Source: Dethiobacter sp. (GTDB lineage Bacteria > Bacillota > Dethiobacteria > DTU022 > UBA8154). From it: a stretch of DNA of 64,000 bases. The translations under genes and the position numbers were made by a program. This document shows positions 7,778 to 36,895 of this stretch, one piece after another. The notes beneath the pieces are model-generated. The model was not told where the DNA came from, did not search any database, and was given only the letters and a program-made list of their open reading frames with translations. Position 1 is the first letter of the stretch; each line of letters starts with the position of its first letter. Location: positions 19,562-83,561 of the forward strand of contig QZJM01000020.1 of the NCBI GenBank assembly GCA_003605065.1, given 5' to 3'.

Positions 7778-7798
7778 ATTCCTGTATTGGTGTAAGCG

Positions 7799-7823: not shown

Positions 7824-7878
7824 ATATTTATGCCAGAAATGGTAAAGAATAGCTGCAAAAAGGAGATCGTTTCTCTTT

Positions 7879-14710: not shown

Positions 14711-14799
14711 GAAGAAAAGGCTTTCGAACTGCTGCAGGGTTGGCCTGTGATCATTGAGGATGACGCCGGTGATTTTAGGGCAGTAAGGTGGGGGATACG

Positions 14800-16098
14800 A
14801 TGAACGATAAGCTGGGAAAAAATAAAAATCAAAAAAAGGAACAAAAAAGACCGGGGGCCCTGGTCCGCATGTTCGGAGTTTTGGGCAATATAATTTTTGT
14901 TTTAATGCTTCTGGTAATGTCGGCGCTGGTATTTTTTCTGGTACAGAGCAAGATCGCGGGAAACCCCCCCGGCGTGGCGGGTTACCAGATGCTCATAGTT
15001 ATCAGCGGCAGCATGAACCCCACCTTCGATACGGGGAGCGTGGTATTTGTGCGACCAATGGACCCAAAAAACCTTGCTGCCGGGGATATTATTACTTTTA
15101 AGGGTTCCGGGGGAAGCGACAAATTAACAACCCACCGGATAGTGGACGTGCATACGGAAGACGGCCTTGGTTTTACCACCCGCGGGGATGCCAACAATGT
15201 CAATGACCCGAACATAGTTCCGGCCCGAAACGTAGTCGGGAAAGTGGTCCTGGCCATACCTTATGCCGGCTACCTGTTCAATTATGTGCAGACCAAAGAA
15301 GGTTATATAGCTTTAATCCTGATACCCGGAGTGCTGATCATTTTTACGGAGCTGTACAAGCTCCTTAAATATGCCAGGCAGGTTGACAAAAAAGAAAGCA
15401 CCGGAAAGAAGGACAAAAGACTGGCTTCCGGAAAGCATCCAGAGGAGGCGGCAGCTGAAATAGAAAATGAAGAGGACGAAGCTGCCCTGCCCGGCGGGGA
15501 AGAACCGGCATTTGTTCCCTATTACGCTCATAAAGCAGGGTTTACGGCAGGTAATTATGAGAATGCTGACTACCCGGTCAGCCAGGTCCGTGACAGGCGT
15601 GAGAATGAAGTTAAAGAGGTGCTGGAGAAAGAAAAAATAATAGCTGCTGTGAAAAAAACTGCCGCAGTGGATGAATTAGCTTTTCTAAATAAAGCTGCGG
15701 TTGTGGATAAAACTGCCGTAGCAAATGAAGCTGCCGCTGTGGATGAAATAGCCGCTGTAGATAAAACTGACATCATAAAAGAAGCTGTCATTCTAAAAGA
15801 AACTGCCGTCGTAAATGAAGCTGTCGTCATAGATGAAATAACTGTTCTAGATAAGATAGCCGCTCTCCCCGCCCAGAGCAGCGAATTCACCCCCGTGACC
15901 AGCCGTAAGCCTTACCACGGCGGGAATGAAGAAGCCAGGGAAAAAATTTGGAGAGAGCGGGCTTTTGCCATCTTGAGCGGTCTGCCCGTGGTTGTGGATG
16001 AAAATGGAGAAGAAAGGGTCTGGAAAGAGCGTGCCTTCGCCATGCTGAGCGGTTTGGCCGTGGTTATTGATGATTCCGGGAAAGAAGAGGTTAGCTAG
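14800..16098 (+). CDS. sipW: SipW-type signal peptidase I (S26B, archaeal/ER-type) with a roughly 240-aa C-terminal repeat-rich extension
   Basis: N-terminal TM segment, catalytic box VISGSMNPTFDTGSVVFV and a second TM (GYIALILIPGVLIIF). AAGGTGGGGG RBS. The extension contains Ala/Val/Asp-rich tandem repeats and two WxERAFAxLSGLPVVxD motifs. Confidence 0.8.
   Translation: MNDKLGKNKNQKKEQKRPGALVRMFGVLGNIIFVLMLLVMSALVFFLVQSKIAGNPPGVAGYQMLIVISGSMNPTFDTGSVVFVRPMDPKNLAAGDIITFKGSGGSDKLTTHRIVDVHTEDGLGFTTRGDANNVNDPNIVPARNVVGKVVLAIPYAGYLFNYVQTKEGYIALILIPGVLIIFTELYKLLKYARQVDKKESTGKKDKRLASGKHPEEAAAEIENEEDEAALPGGEEPAFVPYYAHKAGFTAGNYENADYPVSQVRDRRENEVKEVLEKEKIIAAVKKTAAVDELAFLNKAAVVDKTAVANEAAAVDEIAAVDKTDIIKEAVILKETAVVNEAVVIDEITVLDKIAALPAQSSEFTPVTSRKPYHGGNEEAREKIWRERAFAILSGLPVVVDENGEERVWKERAFAMLSGLAVVIDDSGKEEVS
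15640..15860 (+). repeat. in-frame tandem nucleotide repeats (about 30-60 bp units) encoding an AAVDE/AVVNE-type low-complexity segment inside sipW
   Basis: Seen in the sequence: units such as aaaactgccg-agt-gatgaa-tagc recur about six times. Confidence 0.6.
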
Positions 16099-16102
16099 CC
16101 CT

Positions 16103-16360
16103 ATGACCCAAAGAATCATGGTAAGTATAACAATCCTTACGCTTATGGCGGTGCTGATCGGCGGCGCCACCATGGCCTGGTTTACAGCCCAGGCGGAAAT
16201 AACCGATAACGTATTCCAGGCCGGGACACTGACCATTGACGCACAAGAAACGTGGGCATACGAAAGCGGGCCGTTGACTAACTGGAACCCCGTTTTCAAC
16301 GGGACAAGCAATAAAAACCTCAAAATTGGGGCAGGACTGCTGCAGGGTATGCCGGAATAG
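16103..16360 (+). CDS. short TasA/camelysin-family secreted protein with a SipW-cognate signal peptide
   Basis: Its signal peptide ends in GGATMAWFTAQAEITDNVFQAGTLTID, the SipW-cognate class. It lies immediately downstream of sipW. It is only about 86 aa, against about 260 aa for TasA. Confidence 0.6.
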   Translation: MTQRIMVSITILTLMAVLIGGATMAWFTAQAEITDNVFQAGTLTIDAQETWAYESGPLTNWNPVFNGTSNKNLKIGAGLLQGMPE

Positions 16361-16678
16361 GTGATATCGGCAATGCACCTGTATTTATGGAAACAAGGGA
16401 CATTAAAGGGTTTTTTTAAGGAAATACATTGAAAATTGTAAAAATCTGCAGGAATTTACATTACTTTCATCGAACTAAAGCATCAGAAAACGGTGGAAGA
16501 GAATGACGAGCTTTAGAGTTGCAGGGGCAAATAGGTTTTAATCTAAGGATCCCGGCCGGTGTTACCGGGACGACCGGAACCTGGTACAGCATGCCTTCTA
16601 CCGAACGTCAAAAAACCCTTTTTATTTCTTATAGAGCACCTGTTATTTAAAAAAATTAAAGCGGGCGGTGTAAAAAAA

Positions 16679-18820
16679 ATGGAGCGGAAGAAGCGTCTGG
16701 ATGAAATACATGGGCAGATCATGGAGCTTAAAGATCGTTTTAAACATTTGGGCTACAGGCTGATCCAAGAGGGGGAAAGACTTAAAAACCCCGGTTGTCC
16801 GCCGGACGATGTTCTCTTTCAGGAGGTTGCGGAGGAGACCAAAAAATTTAAACTCCTGACGGAAAAACTGGCAGCGGCGGGAAGAGCATTATCCTGGTCC
16901 GGGCTTAATGGCGGAGTTGATTCCCTGGACAAAATGGAGGAAATGTGGAAAGGTCTTGCCGGGCATTTAACCTACCTATATGTACTGGAACAACAAACGG
17001 AGCAGGCCATTGCTCTTGTTAAAAGAGCTATGCAAGCAACCCTGCCGGGAAAACAATTATCGGCAGAACTGGAGTCTTTCAAGAAAAAACTGCGCTATTA
17101 CGAAGAAGTTCTTTCCCGGAATGTGGATGATGAAGAAGCGGCGGAAATGCGCCGCCAGTTCTTGACGGGGGTTCACCCCCTGATCGCTTTTTTAAGGCTG
17201 GCGGAGGAGTACCTGGGAGACCATGAAGAAGCTTCAGAACTTTTTCTGGTGTCAGCGCGGGAATTTGGAAACTTGCTTACCGTAGCAGCGGCAAGGGGAA
17301 ACCTTATTCTTCCTCAGTCAGATCAAAAAGGTGCAGAAAGAAATGAAGAGGAAGTAAAAATAAAATACGAAGCAAAAAAGGTTAAAGAAGTAGAAAAAAA
17401 GGAAAGCGGAAGTAAGAGTTACAGCGGTTATTTAGATGAAATGAATGTCGAACCGGTGGCCGGCAGGAAGCTGAATCAGCGTGAGAGGCTGGTAGAGCAG
17501 ATCTTTAACCTGATCAGGGATGGTAAGCTGGGACCGGCTTTTTGGCTGAATTGTTACTGTGAACAGGTATGGGAAAAGGCGCCGCTGCCTTCCTGGCTGA
17601 TAAAAGCCGTAGAGATTGCGGAAGTTGTCGAAGGCGATGGCGGCGTGGCCGCCGGATGGCTTTCTTACATTTACAAGCACAATAATTTTGAGAGCCTGCT
17701 GGAAAAGAAAACTGGAGGAGAAAATAAGTTGGTGTTCAGTCTTTTCTCAGCTGCTTCCCTGTTGAGACCGGCCCTGGTGGCACCCGGAAGTGGTGCACCT
17801 CTCCTCCTGAAAAAAATAGGTGGTCTGCCCGGGGGTATTCAGGAACTCTGCGCTGTGCTGGCCGGTAACGGGGAGCAGGTTGGATTGGATTGGAAAAAGG
17901 AATTACAGGCGCTCTCCCACGAGGTAACGACCTGGCAGAAACGGAACCAGAAGTTGACCCTGGCCTCCCCCCTGGCGGTAAAGTTATGGGAGAAGATGCA
18001 GGAAGAAGGAGAATTACTCTATAAACTCCTGCAGCCTGTGAAAGAAAACGCAAAGGGTGCCCTAGAAGATATCCGCATGCTTGTCTCCTACCTGCGTGAA
18101 GAAAACAATCTCAAGAAGGAAGTGGCCGATCTTTATTACGGAATGCAGGATTCAAAAGAGTCCCTGGAAATTTTCCATATACCTGGGTCCTGGCAGGTGC
18201 TGGCCCGTTTAAGAGAGGCTTTAAAGCTGGCTGAACGCTGGTTAAAGCTCCACGAGAGAATTACCAAAAATAAGGAAGCAAGAACTCCCCAGAAAGATGA
18301 TTTGCGGGAACCCCTGTTGTCAGCCAGGAAGGACCTGGAGGGGGCGGCCAGGAAGTATGGGGATGATACCATGGTTAGTGCGGGAATCGCTTTATGCGAG
18401 CGTGTGTTTGATTCCCTGGAAAAATATTTTCAGGAAAGAAGGACGGAAATTCCCACAGCAGAAGTACTGTCTGCTCTGGAGTTGAGCAAGAACCCCCAGT
18501 TGAAACTTAAACCATCCTGGAAGCCTAAAGCAGAAACTGTGGAAAAGCTGGGAAAAGCCCTGGTGGAACTTTTAAATGAAGGAGAAGTAAATACCGGAAA
18601 GGCAGAGACAAAAAACGATGATCTGGAATTTGCTGTGAGAAAAGAGGCCGGCACTTATAATCTTTCGAATAACGATACAGCACTTCCGACCCCTAATCTG
18701 AGAAAGACGTGGGAAAGAGATGAAGTATTATCACCACAGGAACGGGATTTTTTAATGAACACCCTGAGAAGCTTTTATAAGGAAAGAACCGAACAGCAAC
18801 AAGACTTAAATGAAAGCTAA
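16679..18820 (+). CDS. large hypothetical soluble protein (about 713 aa) with no domain I recognise
   Basis: Long ORF, Glu/Lys-rich and predicted helical. Its stop overlaps the start of the next gene, which suggests translational coupling. The track ORF begins at 16559, but MERKKRLDEI at 16679 is the first plausible start. Confidence 0.55.
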   Translation: MERKKRLDEIHGQIMELKDRFKHLGYRLIQEGERLKNPGCPPDDVLFQEVAEETKKFKLLTEKLAAAGRALSWSGLNGGVDSLDKMEEMWKGLAGHLTYLYVLEQQTEQAIALVKRAMQATLPGKQLSAELESFKKKLRYYEEVLSRNVDDEEAAEMRRQFLTGVHPLIAFLRLAEEYLGDHEEASELFLVSAREFGNLLTVAAARGNLILPQSDQKGAERNEEEVKIKYEAKKVKEVEKKESGSKSYSGYLDEMNVEPVAGRKLNQRERLVEQIFNLIRDGKLGPAFWLNCYCEQVWEKAPLPSWLIKAVEIAEVVEGDGGVAAGWLSYIYKHNNFESLLEKKTGGENKLVFSLFSAASLLRPALVAPGSGAPLLLKKIGGLPGGIQELCAVLAGNGEQVGLDWKKELQALSHEVTTWQKRNQKLTLASPLAVKLWEKMQEEGELLYKLLQPVKENAKGALEDIRMLVSYLREENNLKKEVADLYYGMQDSKESLEIFHIPGSWQVLARLREALKLAERWLKLHERITKNKEARTPQKDDLREPLLSARKDLEGAARKYGDDTMVSAGIALCERVFDSLEKYFQERRTEIPTAEVLSALELSKNPQLKLKPSWKPKAETVEKLGKALVELLNEGEVNTGKAETKNDDLEFAVRKEAGTYNLSNNDTALPTPNLRKTWERDEVLSPQERDFLMNTLRSFYKERTEQQQDLNES

Positions 18821-21386
18821 AGAGAAAGGAATGATTAATTCCTTGCCTTCTCCTATCAATGCTACGGGAATACTTTTACACGGCAGCTTGAAGGAGCCTC
18901 CTCTTGCCGAAGAGGCCTTAAGGGCCTTAAATTCAGAGGCTTATTCTTCGGCGGGGTTTAAAAAGGCTGCCGGTTCGGATTATTACTCCTACAGGCAGCT
19001 GGAAGAACTTATTTGTACCCTCACGGAAGCTGAGGATGTCCTGGTGGTTAATAACCTCATGGCGGCGGCCTTTCTAGTTTTCCATACCCTGGCGCGGGGC
19101 AGGGAGATTATTGTTTCCAGGAGGGATCTGCACCAAAATGCTTTTTCCGCTTCCCTGGCCGGGGTTGCCCAGAGTTGTGGGGCATACCTGAAAGAAGTGG
19201 GAGGGAAGGAAACCGCCGCACCCGGGGATTATCAGGGTGCTGTTACGGAGCAGTCGGCCCTGTTTTTGACGATTAACAGTCTGGGCAGTTCTAAAAGGGA
19301 AGCTTTCCATGAAGGTATGCCTGCCGGCTTGGGGAAGCCTGAGCTGGCAGTGGTGGGTATTCTTGATAATGCTGCGCTGCTGGATCTGGCACCTTTCGGG
19401 CTGCCCGACGTGCTGCAGGTCCAAAAGCTGATCACCGGAGGGTTTGACATTGTTGTTTTTAGGGGCGATAAGCTCCTGGGAGGGCCCCCGGCAGGAATTA
19501 TAGCCGGAAAAGGCAGGTATCTTTCCCTGCTTAAGCAGGCAACGCTGGCTTCCGCTTTAAGCGCTGGCAGGATCGATAGGGCGACGCTGGAAGCGACTTT
19601 GGCATTATACCTGGACAAGGAAGAGGCTCTGAAGAAAATCCCTTTGCTGAGCATGATTTCGGCGCCACCCCCCCGTATTGAAAAACGGGCCTGGAAACTT
19701 GTTGAAGAGCTGAAGGATTCACTGGAAGGGGTGTTTAATATCAGTATGACTGCCGGGGAAGCCCATATCACTGAGGAAAGCAACGGTCTGGGGGCACTCC
19801 CCAGTTTTCAGGTGTCTATCAGTTCAGAGAAGCTTTCTGCCGCTCAGATTTCTGAACTGCTGACTAAAGGTAATCCACCGGTAATTCCATGTGAATTGAA
19901 AGAGGCGATTTTGCTTGATCTCAGATCTGTCCAGGAAAAAGAAGATGATCTTTTACTTAATTCCATACTTGATTCCCTGGGAGGAGACCGCAAGGAAATC
20001 CGGGTGCTCGATACAGTTCCCAGTCCCATCTGGACGTTAAATGAAGAGAATACCTTTATTTATGCCAACAAAGCCTGTGAGAATTTCTGGGGGTTGGAGA
20101 ACAGCAGCATCTTAGGTAAAGCAATAAGTGAGATTCTTGCCCCGGGAGAGGCAGGAGCCTTATTAAAGAGTATAAAGACGGTAATGAAAAGCAAAGAAAA
20201 AATCGCCATCGAACTAAAGATGAAATCTTTTGGGAACAAGGATAAATGGATGGATATTATTCTTGTACCGCTCTTAAATGGTCAGGAAGAAATTTCCGGG
20301 GTTACATTTACGGCGCATGATGTTACAGAGCGCAAGCGTACTGAAGAAGAATTGAAATATATCAGTATGCATGATTCACTGACGGGTCTTTATAACCGGG
20401 TTTATTTTGAAGAGGAGATGCGTCGGCTAAACACTCACCGGCACTACCCCCTAAGCATTATTGTCTGTGATGTGGACGGTTTGAAGTTTACAAATGATAT
20501 CCTGGGACATGAAAAAGGAGACAAGCTTTTAAAGACGGCGTCTAATCTTATTAAAAAGCCTTTTCGTACATCCGATGTGGTGGCCAGGGTAGGAGGAGAC
20601 GAGTTTGCCATTATTCTGCCCCGGACCAATGAAAAGACCGCGGAGGAGATCTGTGAACGTATAAAAAAGAATGTCGAAAAATACAACCAGGAAAAGAAAG
20701 GTATTCCCTTGAGCCTTCCCCTTGGTTTTGCCACAGGAGAAGAGGCCTCCGGGGGAATTCTGGAAATATTTAAAAATGCGGACAGCAATATGTATAAAAA
20801 TAAATTTGCCCATGGCAAAGCAGTGAAAAGGCAGGTTTTTGAATCTCTGCTGGAAATTCTGGCGGAGAAAGACTTTATGAGCAAGAGTAAAGCAGAACGA
20901 CTGCAGGAAATGCTGCTGTTGCTTGGACAGGCTGTGGGGATGTCACCGGGGGAAATAAAAAATATTTTATTGCTGTCCAGGGTATATGATATTGGCAAGG
21001 TGAATATCGATGATTCCATTCTCTTTAAAGAAGGAGCGTTAAGTGACGCAGAGTGGGAGGAAATTAAACGCCACCCGGAAACAGGTTATCGTATTGCCCG
21101 TTTTTCAGCGGAAATGAACCCCATCGCCGATTTCATTATGCAGCACCATGAATGGTGGGACGGGAATGGTTATCCTGCCGGCTTAAAGGGGAAGGATATC
21201 CACCTTTACCCCCGCATTTTGGCTATTGTGGACGCCTATCAGGCCATGACCAGTCACAGGCCTTACAGGGAGCTACTTTCCCGTGAAGAAGCCATTCAGG
21301 AACTGAAGAGATGCAGCGGAATTCAGTTCGATCCCCGGCTGGTAGAGATCTTTATAAACTTAATCGACCAGGAGAACTTAGTTTAA
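18810..21386 (+). CDS. multidomain signalling protein: degenerate SelA-like domain, PAS, GGDEF (diguanylate cyclase) and HD-GYP (c-di-GMP phosphodiesterase)
   Basis: The N-terminal roughly 300 aa align to selenocysteine synthase SelA (VLVVNNLMAAAFLV...REIIVSRRDL...FRGDKLLGGPPAGIIAGK...RATLEATLALYL). A PAS domain follows. The GGDEF domain carries RVGGDEFAIIL. The HD-GYP domain carries HHEWWDGNGYPAGLKG. An alternative start is the ATG at 18831. Confidence 0.85.
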   Translation: MKAKEKGMINSLPSPINATGILLHGSLKEPPLAEEALRALNSEAYSSAGFKKAAGSDYYSYRQLEELICTLTEAEDVLVVNNLMAAAFLVFHTLARGREIIVSRRDLHQNAFSASLAGVAQSCGAYLKEVGGKETAAPGDYQGAVTEQSALFLTINSLGSSKREAFHEGMPAGLGKPELAVVGILDNAALLDLAPFGLPDVLQVQKLITGGFDIVVFRGDKLLGGPPAGIIAGKGRYLSLLKQATLASALSAGRIDRATLEATLALYLDKEEALKKIPLLSMISAPPPRIEKRAWKLVEELKDSLEGVFNISMTAGEAHITEESNGLGALPSFQVSISSEKLSAAQISELLTKGNPPVIPCELKEAILLDLRSVQEKEDDLLLNSILDSLGGDRKEIRVLDTVPSPIWTLNEENTFIYANKACENFWGLENSSILGKAISEILAPGEAGALLKSIKTVMKSKEKIAIELKMKSFGNKDKWMDIILVPLLNGQEEISGVTFTAHDVTERKRTEEELKYISMHDSLTGLYNRVYFEEEMRRLNTHRHYPLSIIVCDVDGLKFTNDILGHEKGDKLLKTASNLIKKPFRTSDVVARVGGDEFAIILPRTNEKTAEEICERIKKNVEKYNQEKKGIPLSLPLGFATGEEASGGILEIFKNADSNMYKNKFAHGKAVKRQVFESLLEILAEKDFMSKSKAERLQEMLLLLGQAVGMSPGEIKNILLLSRVYDIGKVNIDDSILFKEGALSDAEWEEIKRHPETGYRIARFSAEMNPIADFIMQHHEWWDGNGYPAGLKGKDIHLYPRILAIVDAYQAMTSHRPYRELLSREEAIQELKRCSGIQFDPRLVEIFINLIDQENLV

Positions 21387-21452
21387 TTTATTCAAGTTTA
21401 CGGGTTTTAAGGTAGAGACAAAAATGTGTCAGCCGTAAGGGAGTGAAAAGAA

Positions 21453-22667
21453 ATGGCAGAAGTGGTTATTACCGGTTTAGGTCCTGTGGCCCCCAACGGT
21501 GTAGGTAAAGAGAGCTTCTGGAATGCCCTTAAAGAAGGGAAGTCGGGTATTCGCCGCATCAGCCGCTTTGACCCGGACGGTAGTATTTCCCGGATAGCCG
21601 GTGAGGTTCCACCTGAATGGGTGGAGGCTATCAGCCCCTTTCCCGGAACAAAAAGAGCCTGGAGCACCCATATGGTTATAACTGCGGCACACCTGGCCAT
21701 GGATGATGCTGGCATAAGCAAAGCGGAATTTTCCAAGAGCCTGTCCGGTATCTATGTGGGGATCAGCACCAATGACATGGAGTTTGGTGAACGGGAATAT
21801 GAAACGTTTAAACACTCCGGTTCCACCAAAGCTAATGTTATCTCTTCTTCCTTTCCTCATGCCGCTGCCAGTGAAATAGCCGGCGAATTTAAGTGTGCGG
21901 GGCGGGTAATGACTGTCTCTACGGCATGTTCTTCCGGTATTTTGAGTATCATCTCTGGTGCGGAATCTATCCTGAGGGGCGAGAACGATCTGGTTTTAGC
22001 CGGCGGAGGGGATGCCCCCCTGACTCCCTTTGTTGTTTCCTGTTTTTCCTCTGCGGGCCTTCATCCCACCTCTTATAATGACAGTCCCCTTATGGCCAGC
22101 AGGCCTTTTGATGCTAAAAGGGACGGAGGCGTTTTATCCGAGGGGGCGGGAATGATCGTTATCGAAAACTCCGAGAGGGCTCGTTTAAGGGGGGCAAAGG
22201 TTTATGCCAGGATCAGCGGCTGGGGAGTTGCCAACGCCACTTCCCCGTTGTCTGTGACTTTATCTTTTGTCTCTTCCATAACCCAGGCTCTGCAAAAAGC
22301 CAAACTACCCCTGAATATGCTGGATTATATCTGTGCCCATGCACCCGGCATTAAATTTACAGATAAAGTCGAAACAGAAGCGATTAAAAATGTTTTTGGA
22401 CAGTACGCTTACAACCTGCCGGTTAGCTCCATTAAATCTATGATAGGCAACCCCCTGTCTGCGGCAGGCCCTTTGCAGGTAATTACCACAGCCCTGGTTA
22501 TACAAAATAAGTTTATCCCACCCACCGTAAACTATGAGCACCCTGACCCGGCCTGCGATCTGGATTACGTTCCCAACAGGGGGCGTGTGGCCAGGGTAAG
22601 AAATGCCCTGATAAACCTTTTAGGTGTTGGTGGCTGCATTGTTTCCATGGTTATAACCGAGCCATAG
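21453..22667 (+). CDS. beta-ketoacyl-ACP synthase I/II (FabF/FabB)-like thiolase-fold protein with a non-canonical active site
   Basis: KAS N- and C-domains with VSTACSSG (Cys) and CAHAPG (His). The second catalytic His is replaced by Asn (KSMIGNPLSAAG against canonical KSMTGHLLGAAG). No other fab genes are nearby. Confidence 0.8.
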   Translation: MAEVVITGLGPVAPNGVGKESFWNALKEGKSGIRRISRFDPDGSISRIAGEVPPEWVEAISPFPGTKRAWSTHMVITAAHLAMDDAGISKAEFSKSLSGIYVGISTNDMEFGEREYETFKHSGSTKANVISSSFPHAAASEIAGEFKCAGRVMTVSTACSSGILSIISGAESILRGENDLVLAGGGDAPLTPFVVSCFSSAGLHPTSYNDSPLMASRPFDAKRDGGVLSEGAGMIVIENSERARLRGAKVYARISGWGVANATSPLSVTLSFVSSITQALQKAKLPLNMLDYICAHAPGIKFTDKVETEAIKNVFGQYAYNLPVSSIKSMIGNPLSAAGPLQVITTALVIQNKFIPPTVNYEHPDPACDLDYVPNRGRVARVRNALINLLGVGGCIVSMVITEP

Positions 22668-22670
22668 AGA

Positions 22671-25160
22671 ATGGAGAAAAGTATGATTATTTTTACTATT
22701 GTATTGTTAGCTCTGATAGCAGTGGCTCACGTAGTAATGGGCACAATTATTTATAAAAAGGCTCCCCGTGCTATGCTCAACCGTTTATGCCTGGGTTTTG
22801 CGCTAAATGCCAGTTTATGGAGTGTTTCTGTTCTTTTTGTTATTCTGCAAAATGATTACGAGCAGGCCCTTTTCTGGATTAGAATGTCACATGCCTTGGC
22901 GGCGACTACACCCTCGTTTATGTTTGCCCTGGTTTATTGTTTTAAAGCCGGGATTAAGTATCCTTACAGAAAAGTGTTCTGGGTTTTTTTGTTCAGCCTG
23001 GCACTGGCCTTGTTGTGTTTGACGCCTGCCGTTATTAAGGATGTAGTCCTGGCCGCGGAAGGTAAAATTAAGATTTATGGCCCCGTTTTCCCTCTTTATA
23101 CGATCTTTTTCGCAGTGGTGCCTGTCCTTTCCCTGTACAACCTTTTCCGGCAGCTGCGCCAGTCACGGGGCCTGGTTCGTTTCCAAATACGTTATTTTTT
23201 CGGTGGTATTCTTATTGCTTTTATTTTAGGTAGCCTTGTTAACCTTTTTCTTCCGCTGATGGGCATTACAACAGATAACCTGCGCAGTTTGGGGCCTGTA
23301 TTTACGCTTATAAGCGTTATCTCCATTACTTATGCCATTGCTAAGTACCGTCTGATGGATATAAGCTTAGCCCTTCGCCGGATCATTGCCAATTCCCTGT
23401 CCATAATGCTGGTGGCCGGGATTTATATCTTGGCAATTTTCCTGGCAAAAAAGCAATTTATGGCTTATTCGGATTATTTAACATTATTTTTAATTATTCT
23501 GCTGGTTGTTTCATTCCAGACAATAAAGAACCAGGTACAGTCATTAATTGACCGGTACTTTTTCCGTGGTGCTTATAATTACTTTACGACTCTGAGAAAT
23601 GTTACTAAAGCCATGGTTTCCATTCTTAACAGGGAAAAGCTCCTTTCCTTTCTGACAGACAAGATTATGGAGACTATTTATATCCGGGGGGCTGCTTTTT
23701 TTCTAAGGGAACAAGACGGCTCCTTTACCGCTGTAACAAAAAAATATCTAGCACCTTTTCTTCCTTTGGAGAAAGAATACAGCAAATTGGAGCCCGAAAA
23801 CCCCCTGATCCTGCTCCTGGAAAAAAGGGGAGATGTACTGCTGAAAACTGATTTAAGGGGCGTTGAGCCTGAAGAAAAAAGAGAACTTCTTGTGGGAGAA
23901 ATGAAAAAACTTCATTCTGAAGTGGCTGTGCCGCTGTTTATAGAAGGGAAAATGGACGGTGTTTTTTTCCTGGGTTACAAATTGTCGGGAGAGCCGTATT
24001 CCAAGGAGGATGTAAACCTGCTTTCCACTTTAAGTTATCAGATTGCCGTTTCTCTAAAGAATGCCCGGCTTTACCATGAGATCCTGGAGATTAAGCAATA
24101 TCTGGAGAATGTCCTGGAAAATATGGGTAACGGGTTGATAGCCGTTAATGCGGGGGGAAGGATCACTACTTTTAACAGCACAGCGGAGAAACTTACAGGT
24201 TTAAAAGCCAGGGAGGTACTGGGTAAAAAGGTGGATAAAACCCTTGATCCCGGGTTGTCCTGGCAGTTGCTGCAGACCTTAAATAACGGTCAGAGGAGAA
24301 GTGAAGTGGAAGTAGAGGTGCCGGTAGGTAACTTGACATGCTTTTTGTGCTGCAGCACGGCCCTGGTAGAGTTGAACGATTCAAGGGAACGCGGAGCGAT
24401 TATGGCTCTAAGCGATATCACCCGTATTAAAGAGCTGGAGAGAGAAAAAAGCGAAGTGCAAAGGCTGGCTTCCCTGGGGGAAATGGCCGCAGGAATGGCG
24501 CACGAAATAAAAAACCCGCTTGTATCCATTAAAACCTTTGCGGAACTCCTGCCAGAAAAATACGAAAACCATGAGTTTCGTTACAGTTTTTCCCAGATAG
24601 TATCCCAGGAAATAGAACGTATCAACAACCTGGTCATGGGGCTTCTTAAAATTTCCAGAGATCAGCAGGTCTATAATTATGATGAGGTTAATATTGAAGT
24701 TCTGCTGGACGAAATTTTTCTTTTAGTACTTCCCCAGCTTAATGCGCAAAATATAGGCGTTTATAAGCATTATGAACCGGACGTTCCCGTTATTCAGGCT
24801 GACAGGGAACAGTTAAAACAAGCTCTTTTTAATATATGTTTAAATGGAATTCAGGCCATGCCCGGGGGTGGGGAGCTGAGGGTGGAAATTTTACCTGTTA
24901 TGGTTCTCGCTGGTGAGACGGCCGGCGTTCTTTCCCCGGGGAAAAAGGTAAAGATAGTGATTGAAGATACGGGAATAGGGATTTCTTCTCCGGAAAAAGA
25001 AAAGATATTTGATCCATTTTTTACTACCAAGGCTGATGGGGTGGGAATCGGCTTGAGTATAAGCCATCGTGTGATCACCAGCCATGGGGGGAGCATTCAG
25101 GTCCGCAGCAGTAAAGGTGAAGGGACTGTTTTTGAGATTTACCTTCCGGCCGGGGATTAA
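22671..25160 (+). CDS. sensor histidine kinase: N-terminal 7TM sensor, GAF, PAS, HisKA, HATPase
   Basis: Seven N-terminal TM segments, an H-box AHEIKNPLVSIKTFAELL and complete N/G1/G2 boxes (DTGIGI, GVGIGLS). It starts 4 nt after the KAS-like gene. Confidence 0.85.
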   Translation: MEKSMIIFTIVLLALIAVAHVVMGTIIYKKAPRAMLNRLCLGFALNASLWSVSVLFVILQNDYEQALFWIRMSHALAATTPSFMFALVYCFKAGIKYPYRKVFWVFLFSLALALLCLTPAVIKDVVLAAEGKIKIYGPVFPLYTIFFAVVPVLSLYNLFRQLRQSRGLVRFQIRYFFGGILIAFILGSLVNLFLPLMGITTDNLRSLGPVFTLISVISITYAIAKYRLMDISLALRRIIANSLSIMLVAGIYILAIFLAKKQFMAYSDYLTLFLIILLVVSFQTIKNQVQSLIDRYFFRGAYNYFTTLRNVTKAMVSILNREKLLSFLTDKIMETIYIRGAAFFLREQDGSFTAVTKKYLAPFLPLEKEYSKLEPENPLILLLEKRGDVLLKTDLRGVEPEEKRELLVGEMKKLHSEVAVPLFIEGKMDGVFFLGYKLSGEPYSKEDVNLLSTLSYQIAVSLKNARLYHEILEIKQYLENVLENMGNGLIAVNAGGRITTFNSTAEKLTGLKAREVLGKKVDKTLDPGLSWQLLQTLNNGQRRSEVEVEVPVGNLTCFLCCSTALVELNDSRERGAIMALSDITRIKELEREKSEVQRLASLGEMAAGMAHEIKNPLVSIKTFAELLPEKYENHEFRYSFSQIVSQEIERINNLVMGLLKISRDQQVYNYDEVNIEVLLDEIFLLVLPQLNAQNIGVYKHYEPDVPVIQADREQLKQALFNICLNGIQAMPGGGELRVEILPVMVLAGETAGVLSPGKKVKIVIEDTGIGISSPEKEKIFDPFFTTKADGVGIGLSISHRVITSHGGSIQVRSSKGEGTVFEIYLPAGD

Positions 25161-25213
25161 TTAATTTGCAGGGTGTTATTCAAAAATAAGTCGCGAGAGA
25201 TAGATTATCCACA

Positions 25214-27226
25214 TTGGAAAGGCAGTTGTATAAGTTGAAGCTGGTTGTGCTCATTTCCCAAAAAGAAAGTATCTTAAGGAAAATTAAAGAGTTTATCCCG
25301 GAAGACTATATCCTCCTGGAGGGTGAACCCGGGCCGAAAGGTTTACAGCTGCTGGGGAATATAGTTTCCGGTGTTATCCTGGTGGATACCAGTATCCACG
25401 GTATTCAAATGTGGATCGGAGAGGCCTTGCGGCTGAGAGCTGATTTAACCTACCTGGGAATTGCCGATAGAGCGGCTGCTGAAAATTTTCCATTCCCATT
25501 GTTTTATGACTTCATTTCTCCGCCTTTTAATTCCCGGCAGGTAAGCAGTTTGCTCGAGCGGGCCTGGGAAAGGGGTCAGCTTAATTTTGAACTTAAGACG
25601 CTTAAAAAAAATCCCGGGGGTAATGATGTAAACAGCTCTTTAAACAGCTCTTCCTCCCATCGCCTCAAGGAGCATGTTTTGTGTGAATTCTCCAGGGCGT
25701 TGAGTAATAATTTTAACCGGAACCGTCTCCTGGAGCTTTTTATGGATGCCGTTGCAGAACTGGTACCTGTGGGGAAATTATCACTTTTGTTATTTAACGA
25801 GAACCTGAATAAGTTTATAATTTCGGCGCAAAGAGGGCTGGATCCGCTTTACTGTTCCGGATTACTGTTTAATCCTTCCTCGGGGCTGCTTGCCTGGTTA
25901 ACCGGGGAGGGACGCATCCTTCGTACCGAAGAAGCAGCGGGCTTTGCTAAAACTTCCTCAGAAGTCCTCCAGGAGATGAAGCTGCTGCAGGCTGTCGTTT
26001 GTATACCGCTGGTGGTCCATGGGCAGTTGGTGGGAACTCTTAACCTGGGTCCCAAGGTGACCGGTTCGCTGTTCTCTGACGATGAGCTTGAGGTGCTTTA
26101 TATACTGTCCGGAAATGTTGCTATGGCCTTACGAGATATTGAGCTGCATCACCAGATACGCTATCAAAAATATTTTATTGAAAATATTCTTCAGCGTATG
26201 AATAGCGGTGTTATAGCTATAAACCAGGAAAATCTGATCATAACTTTCAACTATCGCGCCGGAAAAATACTGTCTTTTCAGCCGGAAGAGGTAATGGGTA
26301 AGGATCTGCGTTGTTTGCCCAGCCCCCTTGGAGATTTGCTCTATGACACCCTTACTATGGGCAGGGTGTATCATAAAGAGGAGATTATACTGGCATTCGG
26401 GCATATTCCCCTGGAATTCAGTACCTATCAATTGCTGGATGAAGAGCGGGCTGTTGCCGGGAGTGTGATGATCTTTGATGATATATCAGAAAGAAAACAG
26501 CTGGAGGTAGAGCGCCGCCAGGCCGATCAACTGGATGTTCTTAACAAGTTTGTGGGGCAGCTGGCTCATGAAATTAAAAATCCGATGGTGGCTATACAGA
26601 CTTTTTGCGAACTTTTACCGGAAAAATATGAAGACAGCTCTTTCCGTGATTTTTTTACCCATACCGTTCGCCAGGAAGTTCAGAGGTTAAATGAACTGGT
26701 GGAGCAGCTTATTGCTTTTTCCACTTCACTTTCCTACAAGTTCATGCCTGTAGAGATTCATGAGACCCTGGACAGGGCCCTCTTAATGCTGCAGGAACAG
26801 GGTAAGGGGCAGAAGACCTCCGTTAATACTTCTTATTCACCGGATAAGTTTAACATTAGGGCTGATAAAATCTTACTGGCCAGGTCTTTTTCTTATCTCC
26901 TGAGAAACTCTTTTCAGGCTATGGAAAAAGGAGGCAGCCTTTTTATCCATACATTTTTTGATGGCTCTTTATTTGAAAATGGAGGCGTTGGTATTCACTT
27001 CTGGGATTCCGAAACAAAAACGGAGATCAGTAACGTGGAGAAATTATTTAATCCCCTTTGTGCCCGGGAGAGCGGGTATATATCCCTGGAGCTGCCGGTT
27101 TGCCGTAAAATTATTGAGGATCACGGCGGACATGTCCGAGCGTCTTTAACCAAGGACAAATATCTTAAGTTTGAGGTATATTTGCCGATATTTTCTGGTG
27201 AAGGGGGTGAAAATGTTGCCACATAA
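25214..27226 (+). CDS. paralogous cytoplasmic sensor histidine kinase (pseudo-receiver-like N-terminus, GAF, PAS, HisKA) with a degenerate ATP-binding domain
   Basis: H-box LAHEIKNPMVAIQTFCELL is present. The G1 (DxGxG) and G2 (GxGxGL) boxes of the HATPase domain are not recognisable. The TTG start is uncertain. Confidence 0.7.
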   Translation: MERQLYKLKLVVLISQKESILRKIKEFIPEDYILLEGEPGPKGLQLLGNIVSGVILVDTSIHGIQMWIGEALRLRADLTYLGIADRAAAENFPFPLFYDFISPPFNSRQVSSLLERAWERGQLNFELKTLKKNPGGNDVNSSLNSSSSHRLKEHVLCEFSRALSNNFNRNRLLELFMDAVAELVPVGKLSLLLFNENLNKFIISAQRGLDPLYCSGLLFNPSSGLLAWLTGEGRILRTEEAAGFAKTSSEVLQEMKLLQAVVCIPLVVHGQLVGTLNLGPKVTGSLFSDDELEVLYILSGNVAMALRDIELHHQIRYQKYFIENILQRMNSGVIAINQENLIITFNYRAGKILSFQPEEVMGKDLRCLPSPLGDLLYDTLTMGRVYHKEEIILAFGHIPLEFSTYQLLDEERAVAGSVMIFDDISERKQLEVERRQADQLDVLNKFVGQLAHEIKNPMVAIQTFCELLPEKYEDSSFRDFFTHTVRQEVQRLNELVEQLIAFSTSLSYKFMPVEIHETLDRALLMLQEQGKGQKTSVNTSYSPDKFNIRADKILLARSFSYLLRNSFQAMEKGGSLFIHTFFDGSLFENGGVGIHFWDSETKTEISNVEKLFNPLCARESGYISLELPVCRKIIEDHGGHVRASLTKDKYLKFEVYLPIFSGEGGENVAT

Positions 27227-28247
27227 GCCCAGAATACTGATCGTCGATGATGAACTGGGACCAAGGGAAGCGCTGAGGATGATTTTATCTGATGATTACG
27301 ATGTGGTTGCGGCCAGTAACGGGAATCAGGCCATGGAAAACCTTTCCCGGTTAGAATTTGATCTGGTGATACTGGATATCAGGATGCCCGATATCAGCGG
27401 TATTGACCTTCTGGCCGAGGTGAGGAAAAAAGCTCCGGATACGGAGGTTGTTATGATTACCGCTTATGCCTCCGTGGATACGGCTACCAATGCCCTGCGA
27501 CTCGGTGCCCTGGATTATCTCATTAAACCATTTGATCGGCATTCCGTGAAGGAGGCCGTGGAAAAAGGCCTTTCACGCCGCAGTAAAACTAAAACGCTTA
27601 AGAGTAAGCTGGACGAACTTGAGCTTGTCAACGAGTCCCTGAAAGCGGAAGCTGAAAATGCTTACAATAATATCCACAAGCATTATACGGAAACGGTGCG
27701 GTCGCTGGTAACAGCCATCGATGCTAAAGATTCCTATACCAAGGGGCACCAGGAAAGGGTCGCCATTTATGCTATGCTCCTGGCGGTGGAAGTAAATCTT
27801 TCTGTCGGTGAAATGAGCCTGCTCCAACAGGCAGCGGTACTCCATGATATAGGAAAGATCGGGGTGCTGGAGAACATTCTCAGGAAAAAAGGGCCGCTTA
27901 CACCGGAGGAGTTTAAATTAATTAAACAGCATCCTGTCATTGGGGCGGGGATTATTTCTCCTGTAGAGTTCCTTAAAGAAGCAGTCCCCATAGTTCTTCA
28001 TCATCACGAGAAATTTGATGGGACGGGCTATCCCCGGGGTCTTAAGGGTTTGCACATACCAGAAGGTGCCAGGATCATCACAATTGCCGATGCTGTAGAT
28101 GCCATGTTAACTGAACGCCCTTATGCGCAGGCTAAAACACCCTCGCAGGTAAGAGAGCAGCTGCTCCTCTGCTCGGGAACACAGTTTGATCCCCGGCTGG
28201 TAAGGATTGCTTTAAAAATAGACCTGCCTTCCAGACGTATACTCTAA
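27213..28247 (+). CDS. response regulator with an HD-GYP output domain (c-di-GMP phosphodiesterase class)
   Basis: REC domain (ILIVDDE...LVILDIRMPD) followed by HD-GYP (HHHEKFDGTGYPRGLKG). It overlaps the previous kinase by 14 nt. GGGGG RBS. Confidence 0.85.
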   Translation: MLPHKPRILIVDDELGPREALRMILSDDYDVVAASNGNQAMENLSRLEFDLVILDIRMPDISGIDLLAEVRKKAPDTEVVMITAYASVDTATNALRLGALDYLIKPFDRHSVKEAVEKGLSRRSKTKTLKSKLDELELVNESLKAEAENAYNNIHKHYTETVRSLVTAIDAKDSYTKGHQERVAIYAMLLAVEVNLSVGEMSLLQQAAVLHDIGKIGVLENILRKKGPLTPEEFKLIKQHPVIGAGIISPVEFLKEAVPIVLHHHEKFDGTGYPRGLKGLHIPEGARIITIADAVDAMLTERPYAQAKTPSQVREQLLLCSGTQFDPRLVRIALKIDLPSRRIL

Positions 28248-28281
28248 AATAAATAAATAACATAGAATATCATAAAAGATT

Positions 28282-28310
28282 CCTTAAGGAAGGTTTAAGG
28301 GTCTTTTTTT
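28282..28310 (+). terminator. probable rho-independent terminator after the signalling operon
   Basis: CCTTAA...TTAAGG hairpin followed by a T7 run. Confidence 0.5.
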
Positions 28311-28323
28311 CTTTATGGGCAGG

Positions 28324-28332
28324 TGATATAAT
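28324..28332 (+). promoter_or_regulatory. extended -10 element TGaTATAAT upstream of apgM and the pil cluster
   Basis: Sequence motif only. No clear -35. Confidence 0.3.
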
Positions 28333-28384
28333 TTTTAAATAGTAGTTTCTGCCTGTTTTTATCAGCCTGAAAGGAGATTAAACT

Positions 28385-29584
28385 GTGAAATATATAGTGA
28401 TCCTGGGGGACGGTATGCCTGATTATCCACTGGAGGAACTGGGAGGGAAGACGCCCCTGCAGTATGCCCGTACCCCTTATATGGATAAGCTTGCCAAACA
28501 GGGGGAGATGGGCATGGTCAAGACTGTACCCCAGGGCATGCCGGCGGGGAGCGACGTGGCCAACCTCTCCGTGATGGGCTACGACCCGGCAAGATATTAT
28601 ACCGGGCGCTCTCCCATCGAAGCGGTAGCTATGGGTGTAAAGCTGGCCGAAGAGGACATGGCCTTTCGCTGTAACCTGGTAACGCTTTCCGGGGAGGGGC
28701 CTTATAAAAAAAGAAGGATGCTTGATTACAGTTCCGATGAGATCAGCACCCCCGAGGCCCGGGAAATTATAGAAGAAGTAGCGGCAAGGCTGGGAAATGA
28801 AACTTTTAACTTCTATACCGGCATCAGCTACCGGCATCTGATGGTCTGGAGGGGAGGGCCGGACGGCTTTGACCTTACACCACCCCATGATATTACGGGT
28901 AAAGAGATTGCCGCCTATCTTCCCGAGGGAGAGAATGGCCCGGTATTGCTCCGGTTCATGGAAGAGAGCTGCAGCTTCCTGCCTGAGCATACTGTCAACA
29001 GGGAGCGCCAGTCCCGGGGGCTTAGACCGGCTAATTCCATCTGGTTATGGGGGCAGGGGAGGCGGCCCCGCCTGGATAGTTTTAAAGAAAAATACGGGGT
29101 GGAGGGGGCGGTTATCTCCGCCGTGGACCTTATTAAAGGCCTGGGTATCCTGGCCGGGCTGGAGGTTGTAAATGTCCCCGGAGCTACGGGGAATATAAGC
29201 ACAAATTTCCGGGGGAAGGCCCTTAAAGCTGTGGAAGCATTAAAGGAGGGCCGTGATTTTGTCTTTATTCACATCGAGGCTCCCGACGAGGCCGGACACC
29301 GGGGAGAACTGGAAATAAAAATAAGGGCCATCGAAGAGATCGACGAGAAGGTGGTGGGGGAAGTCCTGCGCGGGCTGGAGGAGTTTCCGGAGTACAGGCT
29401 CATGGTCCTCTCCGACCACCCCACCCCGCTTACACTGCGCACGCATACGGCGGAACCCGTGCCTTTCTGCATCTATAATAAGGGAGACGCTGTCAAAAAC
29501 CCGCAGGGCGAATTCAGCGAAAGCTTTGCCGCCGGAGGGGTATTCTTTCCGGAAGGTTACCGGCTGATGGATCATTTCCTCTAA
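28385..29584 (+). CDS. apgM: cofactor-independent phosphoglycerate mutase, archaeal type (ApgM family metalloenzyme)
   Basis: MKYIVILGDGMPDYP...KTPLQYARTPYMD... matches the ApgM family. GTG start with an AAAGGAG RBS. Confidence 0.85.
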   Translation: MKYIVILGDGMPDYPLEELGGKTPLQYARTPYMDKLAKQGEMGMVKTVPQGMPAGSDVANLSVMGYDPARYYTGRSPIEAVAMGVKLAEEDMAFRCNLVTLSGEGPYKKRRMLDYSSDEISTPEAREIIEEVAARLGNETFNFYTGISYRHLMVWRGGPDGFDLTPPHDITGKEIAAYLPEGENGPVLLRFMEESCSFLPEHTVNRERQSRGLRPANSIWLWGQGRRPRLDSFKEKYGVEGAVISAVDLIKGLGILAGLEVVNVPGATGNISTNFRGKALKAVEALKEGRDFVFIHIEAPDEAGHRGELEIKIRAIEEIDEKVVGEVLRGLEEFPEYRLMVLSDHPTPLTLRTHTAEPVPFCIYNKGDAVKNPQGEFSESFAAGGVFFPEGYRLMDHFL

Positions 29585-31415: not shown

Positions 31416-31501
31416 GCTTGGTAATAATATAGGAGTTTTAAAAATTTTTTAGCGATAAAAGTCGATATTTTATTATGTTTTTCGGGGAGGAACCGCTTTT
31501 G

Positions 31502-33184: not shown

Positions 33185-33196
33185 GGGGATAAAAAG

Positions 33197-34216: not shown

Positions 34217-34311
34217 ACAGGAAATCAAACAGGAAGCAGTTCTTTATCCGGAGCAACCGCAGTTTAAAGAAGCAGAAGAGCAGTAATTACAGGTTTTAAG
34301 GGGAGGTACCT

Positions 34312-35583: not shown

Positions 35584-35666
35584 GGGGGTGATCTTATGAA
35601 GGAAAAACAATCTTTTTAAAAACGGCAGGTTTAAGAAATTATATCAAATAATAAATCTTAAAGGAG

Positions 35667-36096
35667 ATGAAGAACAATAAATTTTAGGAAAAAGTTATTC
35701 CTGCCCGGGAAAAATGAAAAAGGTTTTACGCTGATCGAACTCTTAATCGTTATCGCTATCATCGGGGTTTTAGCGGGGATAGCCATTCCCAGTTTTACCG
35801 GGCAAGTTGATACGGCCAGGGTAAAAGCAGACGATGCCAGCATGACAGCAATAGCCAATGCCGTCAGGGTTTATTATGCTGAACATAACAAATGGCCCGG
35901 CGGGCTCATTAATGATAGTGTTGGTATCAAGTTGGATCCTGATGAGGTTAATACGGATAATAAATTGGCAAAAGATCTTAAAACTTATTTGGATACTATC
36001 CCCAAGCCACAACAGGGTACTGACAAATTTTTCTGGGTAAGAATATCCGCTGGAAAAGTAGAAGTAAAAGTTGGAGGAGCTGCTAGTCCCTTCTAA
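35667..36096 (+). CDS. pilA: type IV major pilin (PilA-like). The frame encoding the pilin is open from 35671 but has no ATG/GTG/TTG before the G|FTLIELLIVIAIIG processing site. The nearest ATG (35667) is in the -1 frame.
   Basis: Prepilin motif KG|FTLIELLIVIAIIGVLAGIAIP plus a conserved C-terminal domain. The start needs a +1 shift in the TTTT run at 35682-35685 or a rare start codon. Confidence 0.6.
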
Positions 36097-36894: not shown

Positions 36895-36895
36895 A

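Follow-up and report, generated by a model that had tools for sequence, protein, structure and literature searches.

A ketosynthase with an asparagine-substituted active site, encoded beside a seven-transmembrane sensor kinase across bacterial phyla: a candidate lipid-type signalling cassette in Dethiobacter

The window analysed here is a stretch of 64,000 nucleotides from contig QZJM01000020.1 of Dethiobacter sp., and the gene under study encodes a stand-alone ketosynthase (KS) of the KAS II (beta-ketoacyl-ACP synthase II; ACP, acyl carrier protein) fold, lying directly before the genes of two kinase-like proteins and a response regulator. Comparison with homologous loci suggests that these genes form an undescribed, lipid-like signalling system rather than a part of ordinary fatty-acid synthesis. 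Judged from alignments, the KS belongs to a separate clade of KAS II-fold enzymes that spans phyla, and it is no one-off mutation. The cassette has the appearance of a lipid-type synthase/receptor-kinase pair with a new synthase family, for which the evidence is purely comparative yet unusually consistent. The KS gene, its leader and its key codons are located as follows (window coordinates; Escherichia coli FabF numbering in brackets):

21453..22667, forward strand: KS gene, KAS II-fold condensing enzyme of the 'KSMIGNP' family, ATG start, 404 residues
21387..21452, forward strand: 66-nt spacer upstream of the KS gene, with the ribosome-binding site GGGAG
21927-21929, forward strand: TGT codon of the nucleophile Cys159 (FabF Cys163), motif STACSSG
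22338-22340, forward strand: codon of His296 (FabF His303), motif CAHAPGIKFTD
22449-22451, forward strand: AAC codon of Asn333 (FabF His340 column), motif KSMIGNPLSAAG

The Shine-Dalgarno sequence GGGAG sits eight nt 5' of the KS ATG. Both the N-terminal (PF00109, 4e-44) and the C-terminal (PF02801, 9e-24) ketoacyl-synt domains were found by Pfam, which gave only KAS I/II domains and no match to those of KAS III and chalcone synthases (CHS) (ACP_syn_III, Chal_sti_synt). The closest solved relatives are FabF structures, aligned from end to end (3o04, 1.4e-69), followed by the act KS-alpha (6.6e-68) and, more weakly, FabB (about 1e-39); identity to FabF and to KS-alpha relatives of type II polyketide synthases (PKS) is 30-36%. 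An AlphaFold2 model built from 49 homologues (mean predicted local distance difference test, pLDDT, 95.4) superposes on Bacillus subtilis FabF (4ls5) with a template-modelling (TM) score of 0.95 and a root-mean-square deviation of 1.9 Å. The complete KAS I/II fold claimed in the first-pass annotation of the window is therefore borne out by both Pfam domains, the end-to-end alignment and the model. The score against the fabF equivalog TIGR03150 (316.9 bits, 1.6e-94) does not reach its cut-off of 493.75, and every other curated KAS model also falls below its own cut-off. An identical protein is on record from a Dethiobacter sp. metagenome-assembled genome (MAG) and from the JGI contig Ga0394679_062941.

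The catalytic set consists of Cys159, His296, Lys328 and Asn333. The nucleophile in STACSSG and the first histidine in CAHAPG are present as had been read from the sequence, and so is the proposed exchange of the second catalytic histidine of the KSMTGH motif, since Asn333 shares a column with this histidine in HMMER alignments to three FabF structures. A histidine displaced by one residue had been named beforehand as a possible refutation; there is no histidine within five residues of Asn333, so that the residue is replaced and not shifted. The GTSTP loop after the first histidine is also replaced, as claimed, by H-A-P-G-I, and the GFGG loop of FabF reads GVGG, a change absent from the first-pass annotation. 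The columns of Cys159, His296 and Asn333 thus give the Cys-His-Asn triad of KAS III/CHS-type enzymes in place of the Cys-His-His triad of FabF. The active-site cysteine, which chain-length factors (CLF, KS-beta) lack, usually having Gln in its place, is kept, and there is no second KS in the window. A label as a KS0-like domain of trans-acyltransferase PKS was considered and dropped, because the protein is stand-alone and keeps the first histidine.

This signature is shared by the family. The 120 best database homologues (42-100% identity) were aligned to E. coli FabF and functional positions were read in its numbering, with residue roles taken from PMC7138838. The Cys163 column holds Cys in 120 of 120 sequences; Asp311 and Glu314 are kept in all 120, Lys335 in 119 and Asn396 in 118, together with the G-x-G-G loop. 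The His340 column never contains His (Asn 110, Ser 6, Tyr 2, Thr 1, Asp 1). Around it, Glu349 is replaced by Gln (118 of 120) and Thr305 by Pro (112 of 120), the Thr307 column holds Asp 72, Ile 24 and His 12, the Asp265 column is mostly Ala, and gating loop 2 is shortened. The first histidine is more variable (His303 column: His 83, Cys 22, Asn 11, Ser 3). The basic patch by which FabF docks the acyl carrier protein (ACP) consists of Lys65, Arg68, Lys69, Arg127, Lys128 and Arg206 (PMC7138838), and it is not preserved in the family: Arg206 becomes Gly in 98 of 120 sequences, Lys65 becomes Leu or Phe, Arg127 becomes Thr or Ala, and among the positions of the patch 128 alone is often basic. According to this alignment, the acyl-accepting half of the active site is strictly conserved, and the half concerned with extender binding and decarboxylation is consistently rebuilt, together with the ACP surface. 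When 1.84 billion representatives were searched with a profile of the family, the top 150 matches were giant multi-KS polyketide synthases with summed scores, of no use for a census or a tree; the short matches examined, P0163, P0180 and P0183, proved to be KS-CLF fusions outside the family.

The second line of evidence is gene context. One genome per species (185,579 species) was scanned with two family-specific KS peptide motifs, and relatives were found in about 147 species genomes scattered over phyla. Neighbours were counted in 80 of these 147 loci (10-kb flanks, all MAGs, about eight phyla), the host labels being Dethiobacteria, other Bacillota, Syntrophomonadaceae, Armatimonadota, Omnitrophota, Ratteibacteria, Verrucomicrobiota, Kiritimatiellia, Lentisphaerota and Thermodesulfobacteriota. 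Because the loci were picked through KS motifs alone, their neighbourhood is an unbiased read-out. Kinase linkage was scored in loci with at least 2.5 kb downstream as a same-strand homologue of the seven-transmembrane (7TM) kinase (HisKA_7TM-GAF-PAS) starting within 1.2 kb, and such a homologue directly follows the KS in 59 of the 60 testable loci. In the sixtieth (L054), clustering of open reading frames (ORFs) also places a kinase ORF directly downstream, the tblastn match beginning further along the protein. From KS stop to kinase start the median distance is -4 nt, with 58 of 68 gaps at or below 30 nt, and the two genes are probably co-transcribed and translationally coupled. A second kinase-like gene comes next, and then a receiver-domain gene in 45 of 47 loci, of the receiver (REC)-HD-GYP type in Bacillota and of the NtrC type elsewhere. 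In the manner of lipid-type quorum-sensing loci, the candidate synthase therefore adjoins a polytopic kinase (59/60) and a regulator (45/47). In the window, the corresponding genes are:

22671..25160, forward strand: sensor kinase 1, HisKA_7TM (about residues 1-290), GAF, PAS, HisKA and intact HATPase (Pfam, transmembrane segments)
25214..27226, forward strand: kinase-like protein 2, soluble, with a degenerate receiver-like N-terminus, GAF, PAS and HisKA (JGI start 25235)
27171..28247, forward strand: response regulator REC-HD-GYP (RpfG architecture), likely true start ATG 27213

As given in the first-pass annotation, the KS gene starts 66 nt after the upstream GGDEF gene; its stop, ending at 22667, is separated from the kinase 1 ATG at 22671 by 3 nt. 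The remark in that annotation that fab and ACP genes are missing nearby agrees with Pfam searches of all large ORFs and with tblastn searches, for which FabF of E. coli and the ACPs of E. coli and B. subtilis served as queries and which found none in the 64-kb window. None was found in any of the 80 loci either, and three independent public records (gene calls with Pfam) give the same cassette with no PP-binding protein.

Neighbouring ORFs were clustered de novo and representatives were annotated with Pfam and NCBIfam, which gave two cassette types. Briefly, type A (Bacillota) has the order [753-residue protein without family match]-[SelA-like-PAS-GGDEF-HD-GYP]-class I S-adenosylmethionine (SAM) methyltransferase-KS-7TM kinase-kinase 2-REC-HD-GYP. 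Type B (Planctomycetota-Verrucomicrobiota-Chlamydiota (PVC) bacteria, Omnitrophota, Ratteibacteria) has the order B12-binding radical SAM enzyme-KS-7TM kinase-kinase 2-NtrC-type sigma-54 activator, with a receiver-kinase hybrid and a FadL/TodX outer-membrane channel as divergent neighbours; the channel occurs in 23 diderm loci. Directly upstream of the KS and on the same strand, a class I methyltransferase is found in 25 loci and a B12-radical-SAM enzyme in 28 (median gap 13.5 nt). The window carries a reduced type A cassette without the methyltransferase, as do its closest relatives (L001-L004, L010, L084): the place of the 21387..21452 spacer is occupied in most Bacillota relatives by a gene for a SAM methyltransferase of about 251 residues. 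Locus L084 has the KS, the two kinases and the regulator alone, at the same chromosomal site as the window (mltG-PBP ... apgM-addB).

In a comparison of the window and these relatives with L005-L031, the KS proteins of cassettes lacking the methyltransferase mostly have Ile and not Asp at position Thr307, and Ile or Val and not Asn at position Asn404. These residues may co-vary with the tailoring enzyme, and the pattern hints that they follow the nature of the second substrate. The methyltransferase itself scores below all curated cut-offs, its best match being the DVU_1556 family (68 bits, cut-off 155), with BioC at 49. In the cluster representative (L017:7734-8486), the Rossmann domain is followed by a long hydrophobic stretch, LLWIFPLCGQILWVSPSLLLFLLINRII, suggesting membrane association and a lipid-soluble substrate. 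In two Thermodesulfobacteriota loci (L062:8638-11230 and L078:8640-11239), the gene directly upstream of the Asn-variant KS is FabF-like and canonical, with a Cys-His-His triad and 42% identity to E. coli FabF; no ACP was found near this tandem by tblastn or by reading all frames upstream.

Kinase 1 has about seven or more transmembrane segments matching HisKA_7TM, with its H-box (HEIKNP) and its G1 and G2 boxes intact. Kinase-like protein 2 keeps the H-box, and its ATP-binding domain is without G1 and G2 boxes. Its orthologues (L001-L080) have the H-box in 45 of 49 cases and have lost G1/G2 in about two-thirds. In Omnitrophota orthologues the N-terminus matches a receiver domain at 48.5 bits; that of the window's protein is degenerate. 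The protein has the look of a conserved pseudokinase, or of a phospho-relay element, and recalls PhcR. The regulator matches Response_reg and HD_5/HD, and its HD (residue 225), HHE (278) and GYP (286) motifs are all intact. REC-HD-GYP is the architecture of RpfG (10.1101/2021.11.05.467447), and the ORF at 27171-28247 has the domain order and the three motifs that characterise the RpfG family. The output in this organism is therefore most likely hydrolysis of cyclic di-GMP (c-di-GMP).

The association was also approached from the receptor side. A metagenome scan with the aligned 7TM regions of 12 Bacillota sequences gave more than 542 relatives, 80 of which were kept, and a KS gene lies upstream in 5 of the 80 loci. 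One (L085) is a member of the present family and another (L154) is a canonical KS that is not adjacent. Those of L126:2371-3588 and L130:3621-4838 directly precede the 7TM kinase and have Gln in the His340 column, and the KS before the 7TM kinase in L097:110-1321 has Asn at the first histidine and Ile in the His340 column. The common feature may be the loss of His340 rather than the gain of Asn. Among the loci without KS, 36 have a same-strand upstream gene within 350 nt. In these 36, counted without a control set of kinases, the gene encodes a KAS III-like protein (5), a heme-oxygenase-like diiron protein (4), a 3-hydroxy-3-methylglutaryl-CoA (HMG-CoA) reductase (2), a pyridoxal phosphate (PLP)-dependent acyltransferase of the BioF/Kbl/CqsA superfamily (2), a radical SAM enzyme (2), a methyltransferase (about 5), or a PlsC acyltransferase, an aldehyde dehydrogenase or a GDSL lipase (1 each). 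Eight of the 36 proteins bear a fused N-terminal PilZ domain, which binds c-di-GMP. Examples from this set (L087-L164) are L102:739-2487, L116:3093-4628, L091:3469-4878 and L137:3436-4623. The upstream gene is usually one for another acyl or lipid enzyme, and this succession of a changing acyl enzyme and a HisKA_7TM kinase makes a striking pattern.

Considering these observations together, we favour, with a little less than even confidence, a reading in which the KS makes a hydrophobic acyl-derived ligand that is sensed by the adjacent 7TM kinase. An acyl thioester would be loaded on Cys159 and give a hydrophobic acyl-derived product, likely of the beta-keto or ketone type. In relatives, this product would be methylated by the neighbouring SAM methyltransferase or B12-radical-SAM enzyme. 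It would then partition into membranes and be perceived by the 7TM region of kinase 1. Kinase 1, with the ATPase-degenerate kinase-like protein 2, would set the phosphorylation state of the REC-HD-GYP regulator, which would hydrolyse c-di-GMP. Synthesis is favoured because of the tailoring enzymes upstream, the FadL channel nearby, the invariant Cys and Lys, and the other acyl enzymes before related 7TM kinases. The carboxamide of Asn (or Gln) can stand in for His340 as hydrogen-bond donor to the thioester carbonyl, as it does in KAS III and chalcone synthases, so condensation could still take place. A wider proposal, which we hold more tentatively still, is that HisKA_7TM kinases are receptors for hydrophobic ligands from whichever acyl enzyme lies directly upstream, the KSMIGNP ketosynthases being autoinducer synthases of a new cross-phylum class of lipid-type signalling systems. 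This proposal would cover KAS II-like, KAS III-like, 8-amino-7-oxononanoate synthase (AONS)/CqsA-like, HMG-CoA reductase and diiron oxygenase proteins, often under c-di-GMP control via PilZ.

Several points weigh against synthesis and reception of a signal. The function of the KS is inferred throughout from context. In the cassettes of the window and of L084, tailoring enzymes, carrier proteins, thioesterases and exporters are all missing, which would leave both the making and the release of the molecule to the KS. The first histidine is Cys, Asn or Ser in subclades, and sister lineages linked to histidine kinases have Gln or even Ile in place of the Asn. Hence no single chemistry is fixed for these enzymes, and they may have lost decarboxylative condensation. 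The enrichment of enzymes before 7TM kinases lacks a comparison with control kinases. Finally, the upstream families (KAS, HMG-CoA reductase, PlsC, PEMT) would suit membrane-lipid remodelling equally well.

This last point leads to an alternative that we consider unlikely on balance, namely lipid homeostasis of the Des kind, in which the 7TM kinase senses the membrane's physical or compositional state and the KS, joined in relatives by the methyltransferase or radical SAM enzyme, is a lipid-modifying effector adjusting acyl chains. In B. subtilis the desaturase gene adjoins desK-desR. The enzymes before related 7TM kinases come largely from membrane-lipid families (KAS II/III, HMG-CoA reductase, PlsC acyltransferase, PEMT/ICMT methyltransferases, GDSL lipase), FadL imports fatty acids, and no ligand is known for the polytopic membrane domain that forms the sensor, all of which would fit. 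However, the Bacillota regulator is a REC-HD-GYP protein without a DNA-binding domain and could not control transcription of the KS. The KS and kinase genes overlap or abut, which means that the KS is co-expressed with the kinase and not regulated by it. Moreover, the KS is without the ACP-docking residues and the malonyl-site threonines needed in the housekeeping fatty-acid cycle, and no ACP or reductive enzyme is encoded nearby.

We give a similarly low likelihood to the idea that the KS is a co-sensor, a catalytically limited protein that becomes acylated on Cys159 and reports acyl-CoA or acyl-ACP status to kinase 1 by contact. Stand-alone H-NOX or NosP sensors are encoded upstream of their own kinases in a comparable way. 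The histidine for malonyl decarboxylation is always lost, and in some lineages its column holds Ile or Gln and the first histidine is changed to Cys or Asn; the minimal cassettes have no other biosynthetic gene; the close coupling with the kinase gene points to production of both proteins in stoichiometric amounts; and the altered FabF docking surface could mean a new partner. A pure sensor is nevertheless hard to reconcile with methyltransferase or radical-SAM genes right before the KS in 53 loci, kinase 1 already has three sensor modules (7TM, GAF and PAS), and the catalytic scaffold (Lys335, Asp311, Glu314, Asn396) is invariant or nearly so. The first-pass annotation had offered both an acyl signal and a ligand-binding sensor as explanations of an altered condensing enzyme in a regulatory operon. 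Its core idea, a remodelled condensing enzyme that belongs to the signalling operon, is strongly supported, as the Asn defines a family and the order KS-kinase-kinase-regulator recurs across phyla; between its two explanations, sequence alone does not separate.

A third alternative, in which the KS would be one half of a KS/CLF-like heterodimer in a small pathway (type II PKS or fatty-acid) making a secondary metabolite and the kinases would be mere neighbours or regulators of it, appears highly improbable. It draws on the KS-alpha/KS-beta-like pairs of L062 and L078, where a canonical FabF-like gene lies directly upstream, and on the rank of the act KS-alpha among the best structural and sequence matches. 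Yet a second KS occurs in only 2 of 80 loci, the variant keeps the cysteine that chain-length factors lack, and no ACP, ketoreductase, cyclase or phosphopantetheinyl transferase was found in any locus. That the protein is simply the housekeeping FabF of this organism with an unusual functional triad is hardly credible, although the data bear only indirectly on this refuting condition of the first-pass annotation (no second fabF in the genome): FabF is its best match (TIGR03150, 1.6e-94) and a Cys-His-Asn triad does work in KAS III and chalcone synthases, but its 317 bits lie far under the equivalog cut-off of 494, the gene is always beside kinases and never beside acpP or fab genes in 80 loci, no more than about 147 of the 185,579 species genomes, spread across phyla, have it, the ACP-docking residues are lost, and in L062 and L078 the variant stands beside a canonical FabF-like gene.

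Two further genes of the window belong to the surroundings of the cassette:

18810..21386, forward strand: SelA-like PLP domain fused to PAS-GGDEF-HD-GYP, 858 residues
16559..18820, forward strand: 753-residue protein without Pfam or NCBIfam match, its 3' end overlapping the start of the SelA-GGDEF gene

The SelA-like domain scores 225 bits against TIGR00474 (cut-off 268) and retains the PLP-lysine motif FRGDKLLGGPPAG. The SelA-PAS-GGDEF-HD-GYP architecture stands upstream of the cassette in about 8 Bacillota loci, and the 753-residue protein is co-conserved with it in about 7 (L007, L008, L009, L011, L016, L018, L021). The fusion protein may act as a PLP enzyme or as a sensor of amino acids that controls c-di-GMP; an HD-GYP domain census, searched by term, makes no mention of SelA fusions. 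In a scan of 16000-29000, promoter and terminator counts equalled those of shuffled sequences, with nothing in the intergenic gaps, so that a single operon is neither proved nor disproved. The GC content of the cassette (45-48%) is indistinguishable from that of the remaining window and gives no sign of recent transfer. The rest of the window is an ordinary spore-forming Bacillota chromosome (alaS, mltG, PBP, type IV pilus genes, addAB, efp, spoIIIA operon).

A type IV pilus cluster (31475-38980, forward strand) lies 3 kb downstream of the cassette and encodes a PilB-type ATPase with MshEN, PilT, PilC, a pilin and PilM. MshEN is a domain type known to bind c-di-GMP. Homologues of PilB, PilT or PilC are found less than 10 kb from the cassette in four distant loci (L060, L072, L073, L075), and a T2SSE ATPase and a pilin near the cassette in L084. 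The type IV pilus is a possible output of the c-di-GMP branch. Further upstream in the window, an ORF of 436 residues (14788-16098, forward strand) matches a SipW-type signal peptidase over residues 32-210 only, its C-terminal half being without family match. In L082, a class II lanthipeptide synthetase (DUF4135 and LANC_like) and a Nif11-type precursor (5039-8725, reverse strand) are encoded on the opposite strand, just upstream of a methyltransferase-KS-kinase cassette; their position beside it is probably coincidental.

Literature searches aimed at a ketosynthase-kinase system found no account of the KS family or of the cassette, and term searches in a 2026 quorum-sensing review found no such cassette. 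No NCBIfam model reaches its cut-off for the KS, and no solved structure with its signature was found. The publications found to mention HisKA_7TM are censuses that assign no ligand to it. If the KS does synthesise a signal, an enzyme of fatty-acid synthesis has taken on the role of signal synthase, and the orphan HisKA_7TM sensor kinases gain a testable ligand hypothesis. On the wider proposal, synthase-receptor pairs would be present in Dethiobacteria, Syntrophomonadaceae, Omnitrophota, Ratteibacteria, Verrucomicrobiota, Kiritimatiellia and others. Nearly all of the carriers are anaerobes that are uncultured, namely Dethiobacteria of serpentinite and the subsurface, syntrophs, Omnitrophota and PVC bacteria. 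Since the cassette is small (four genes) and portable, with a simple read-out (c-di-GMP hydrolysis or a sigma-54 activator), it lends itself directly to testing in a heterologous host. To the long debate in enzymology on what the two histidines do in decarboxylative condensation, the Cys-His-Asn site adds a natural case, strongly conserved within a KAS II scaffold.

Among known enzymes, the KS shares with FabF/KAS II and with the KS-alpha of type II PKS the full-length two-domain thiolase fold, the cysteine, the first histidine, Lys335, Asp311, Glu314, Asn396 and the G-x-G-G loop. It differs from FabF/KAS II in the Asn at the second histidine, the Gln at Glu349, the replaced Thr305 and Thr307, the changed Asp265, the shortened gating loop 2, the loss of Arg206, Lys65 and Arg127, the want of a fab/ACP context and the obligate kinase neighbour. 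With KAS III/CHS-type enzymes it has the Cys-His-Asn triad in common; these, however, belong to another branch of the thiolase superfamily, the triad of the KS having arisen by substitution within the KAS II scaffold. Some Cys-His-Asn enzymes, such as PqsD, PpyS and DarB, build quorum-sensing molecules from acyl thioesters (PMC13220807), but known signal makers of this type pair with LuxR-type or PqsR receptors and not with a co-transcribed 7TM kinase.

Lipid signals paired with sensor kinases have several precedents (PMC5391125, PMC8578825, PMC11960443, PMC13220807). In the Cqs/Lqs systems, an acyl-thioester-condensing synthase is encoded beside a polytopic kinase that senses its hydrophobic product, with two kinases and one regulator in Legionella (PMC5289986, PMC13220807). 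CqsA/CqsS of Vibrio and LqsA/LqsS/LqsT/LqsR of Legionella (alpha-hydroxyketone) resemble the present cassette in having the synthase gene next to the polytopic sensor kinase gene, and L137 and L141 reproduce the CqsA/CqsS arrangement, with a BioF/Kbl/CqsA-superfamily enzyme in the KS position before a HisKA_7TM kinase. CqsA is, unlike the KS, a PLP-dependent acyltransferase and no ketosynthase. The Rpf system, based on the diffusible signal factor (DSF), combines a fatty-acid-derived signal, a membrane kinase and a REC-HD-GYP protein that lowers c-di-GMP (PMC5391125, 10.1101/2021.11.05.467447). The window has the counterparts of the membrane sensor kinase RpfC and the regulator RpfG, but RpfF is a crotonase-family dehydratase/thioesterase and RpfC a hybrid kinase with a different membrane domain. 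In Burkholderia, RpfR, a PAS-GGDEF-phosphodiesterase protein, is encoded beside the synthase RpfF (PMC13220807), and here too a PAS-GGDEF-phosphodiesterase gene adjoins the synthase candidate.

The phcBSRQ locus of Ralstonia encodes a methyltransferase, a sensor kinase, a receiver-kinase hybrid and a regulator, its signal being a fatty-acid methyl ester (PMC8578825, PMC11960443), namely methyl 3-hydroxymyristate or 3-hydroxypalmitate. Most Bacillota cassettes read in a similar way (methyltransferase, KS, kinase, receiver-like kinase, regulator), although phc has no ketosynthase and the window no methyltransferase. The candidate synthase, of KAS II fold, lies outside the families of CqsA (AONS), RpfF (crotonase) and PhcB (methyltransferase). 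By analogy, the operon logic of biosynthetic enzyme, polytopic kinase and regulator would be that of CqsA/CqsS, RpfF/RpfC/RpfG and PhcB/PhcS with a different synthase family. The agr and com operons of Gram-positive bacteria share this same logic of biosynthetic enzyme, polytopic kinase and regulator.

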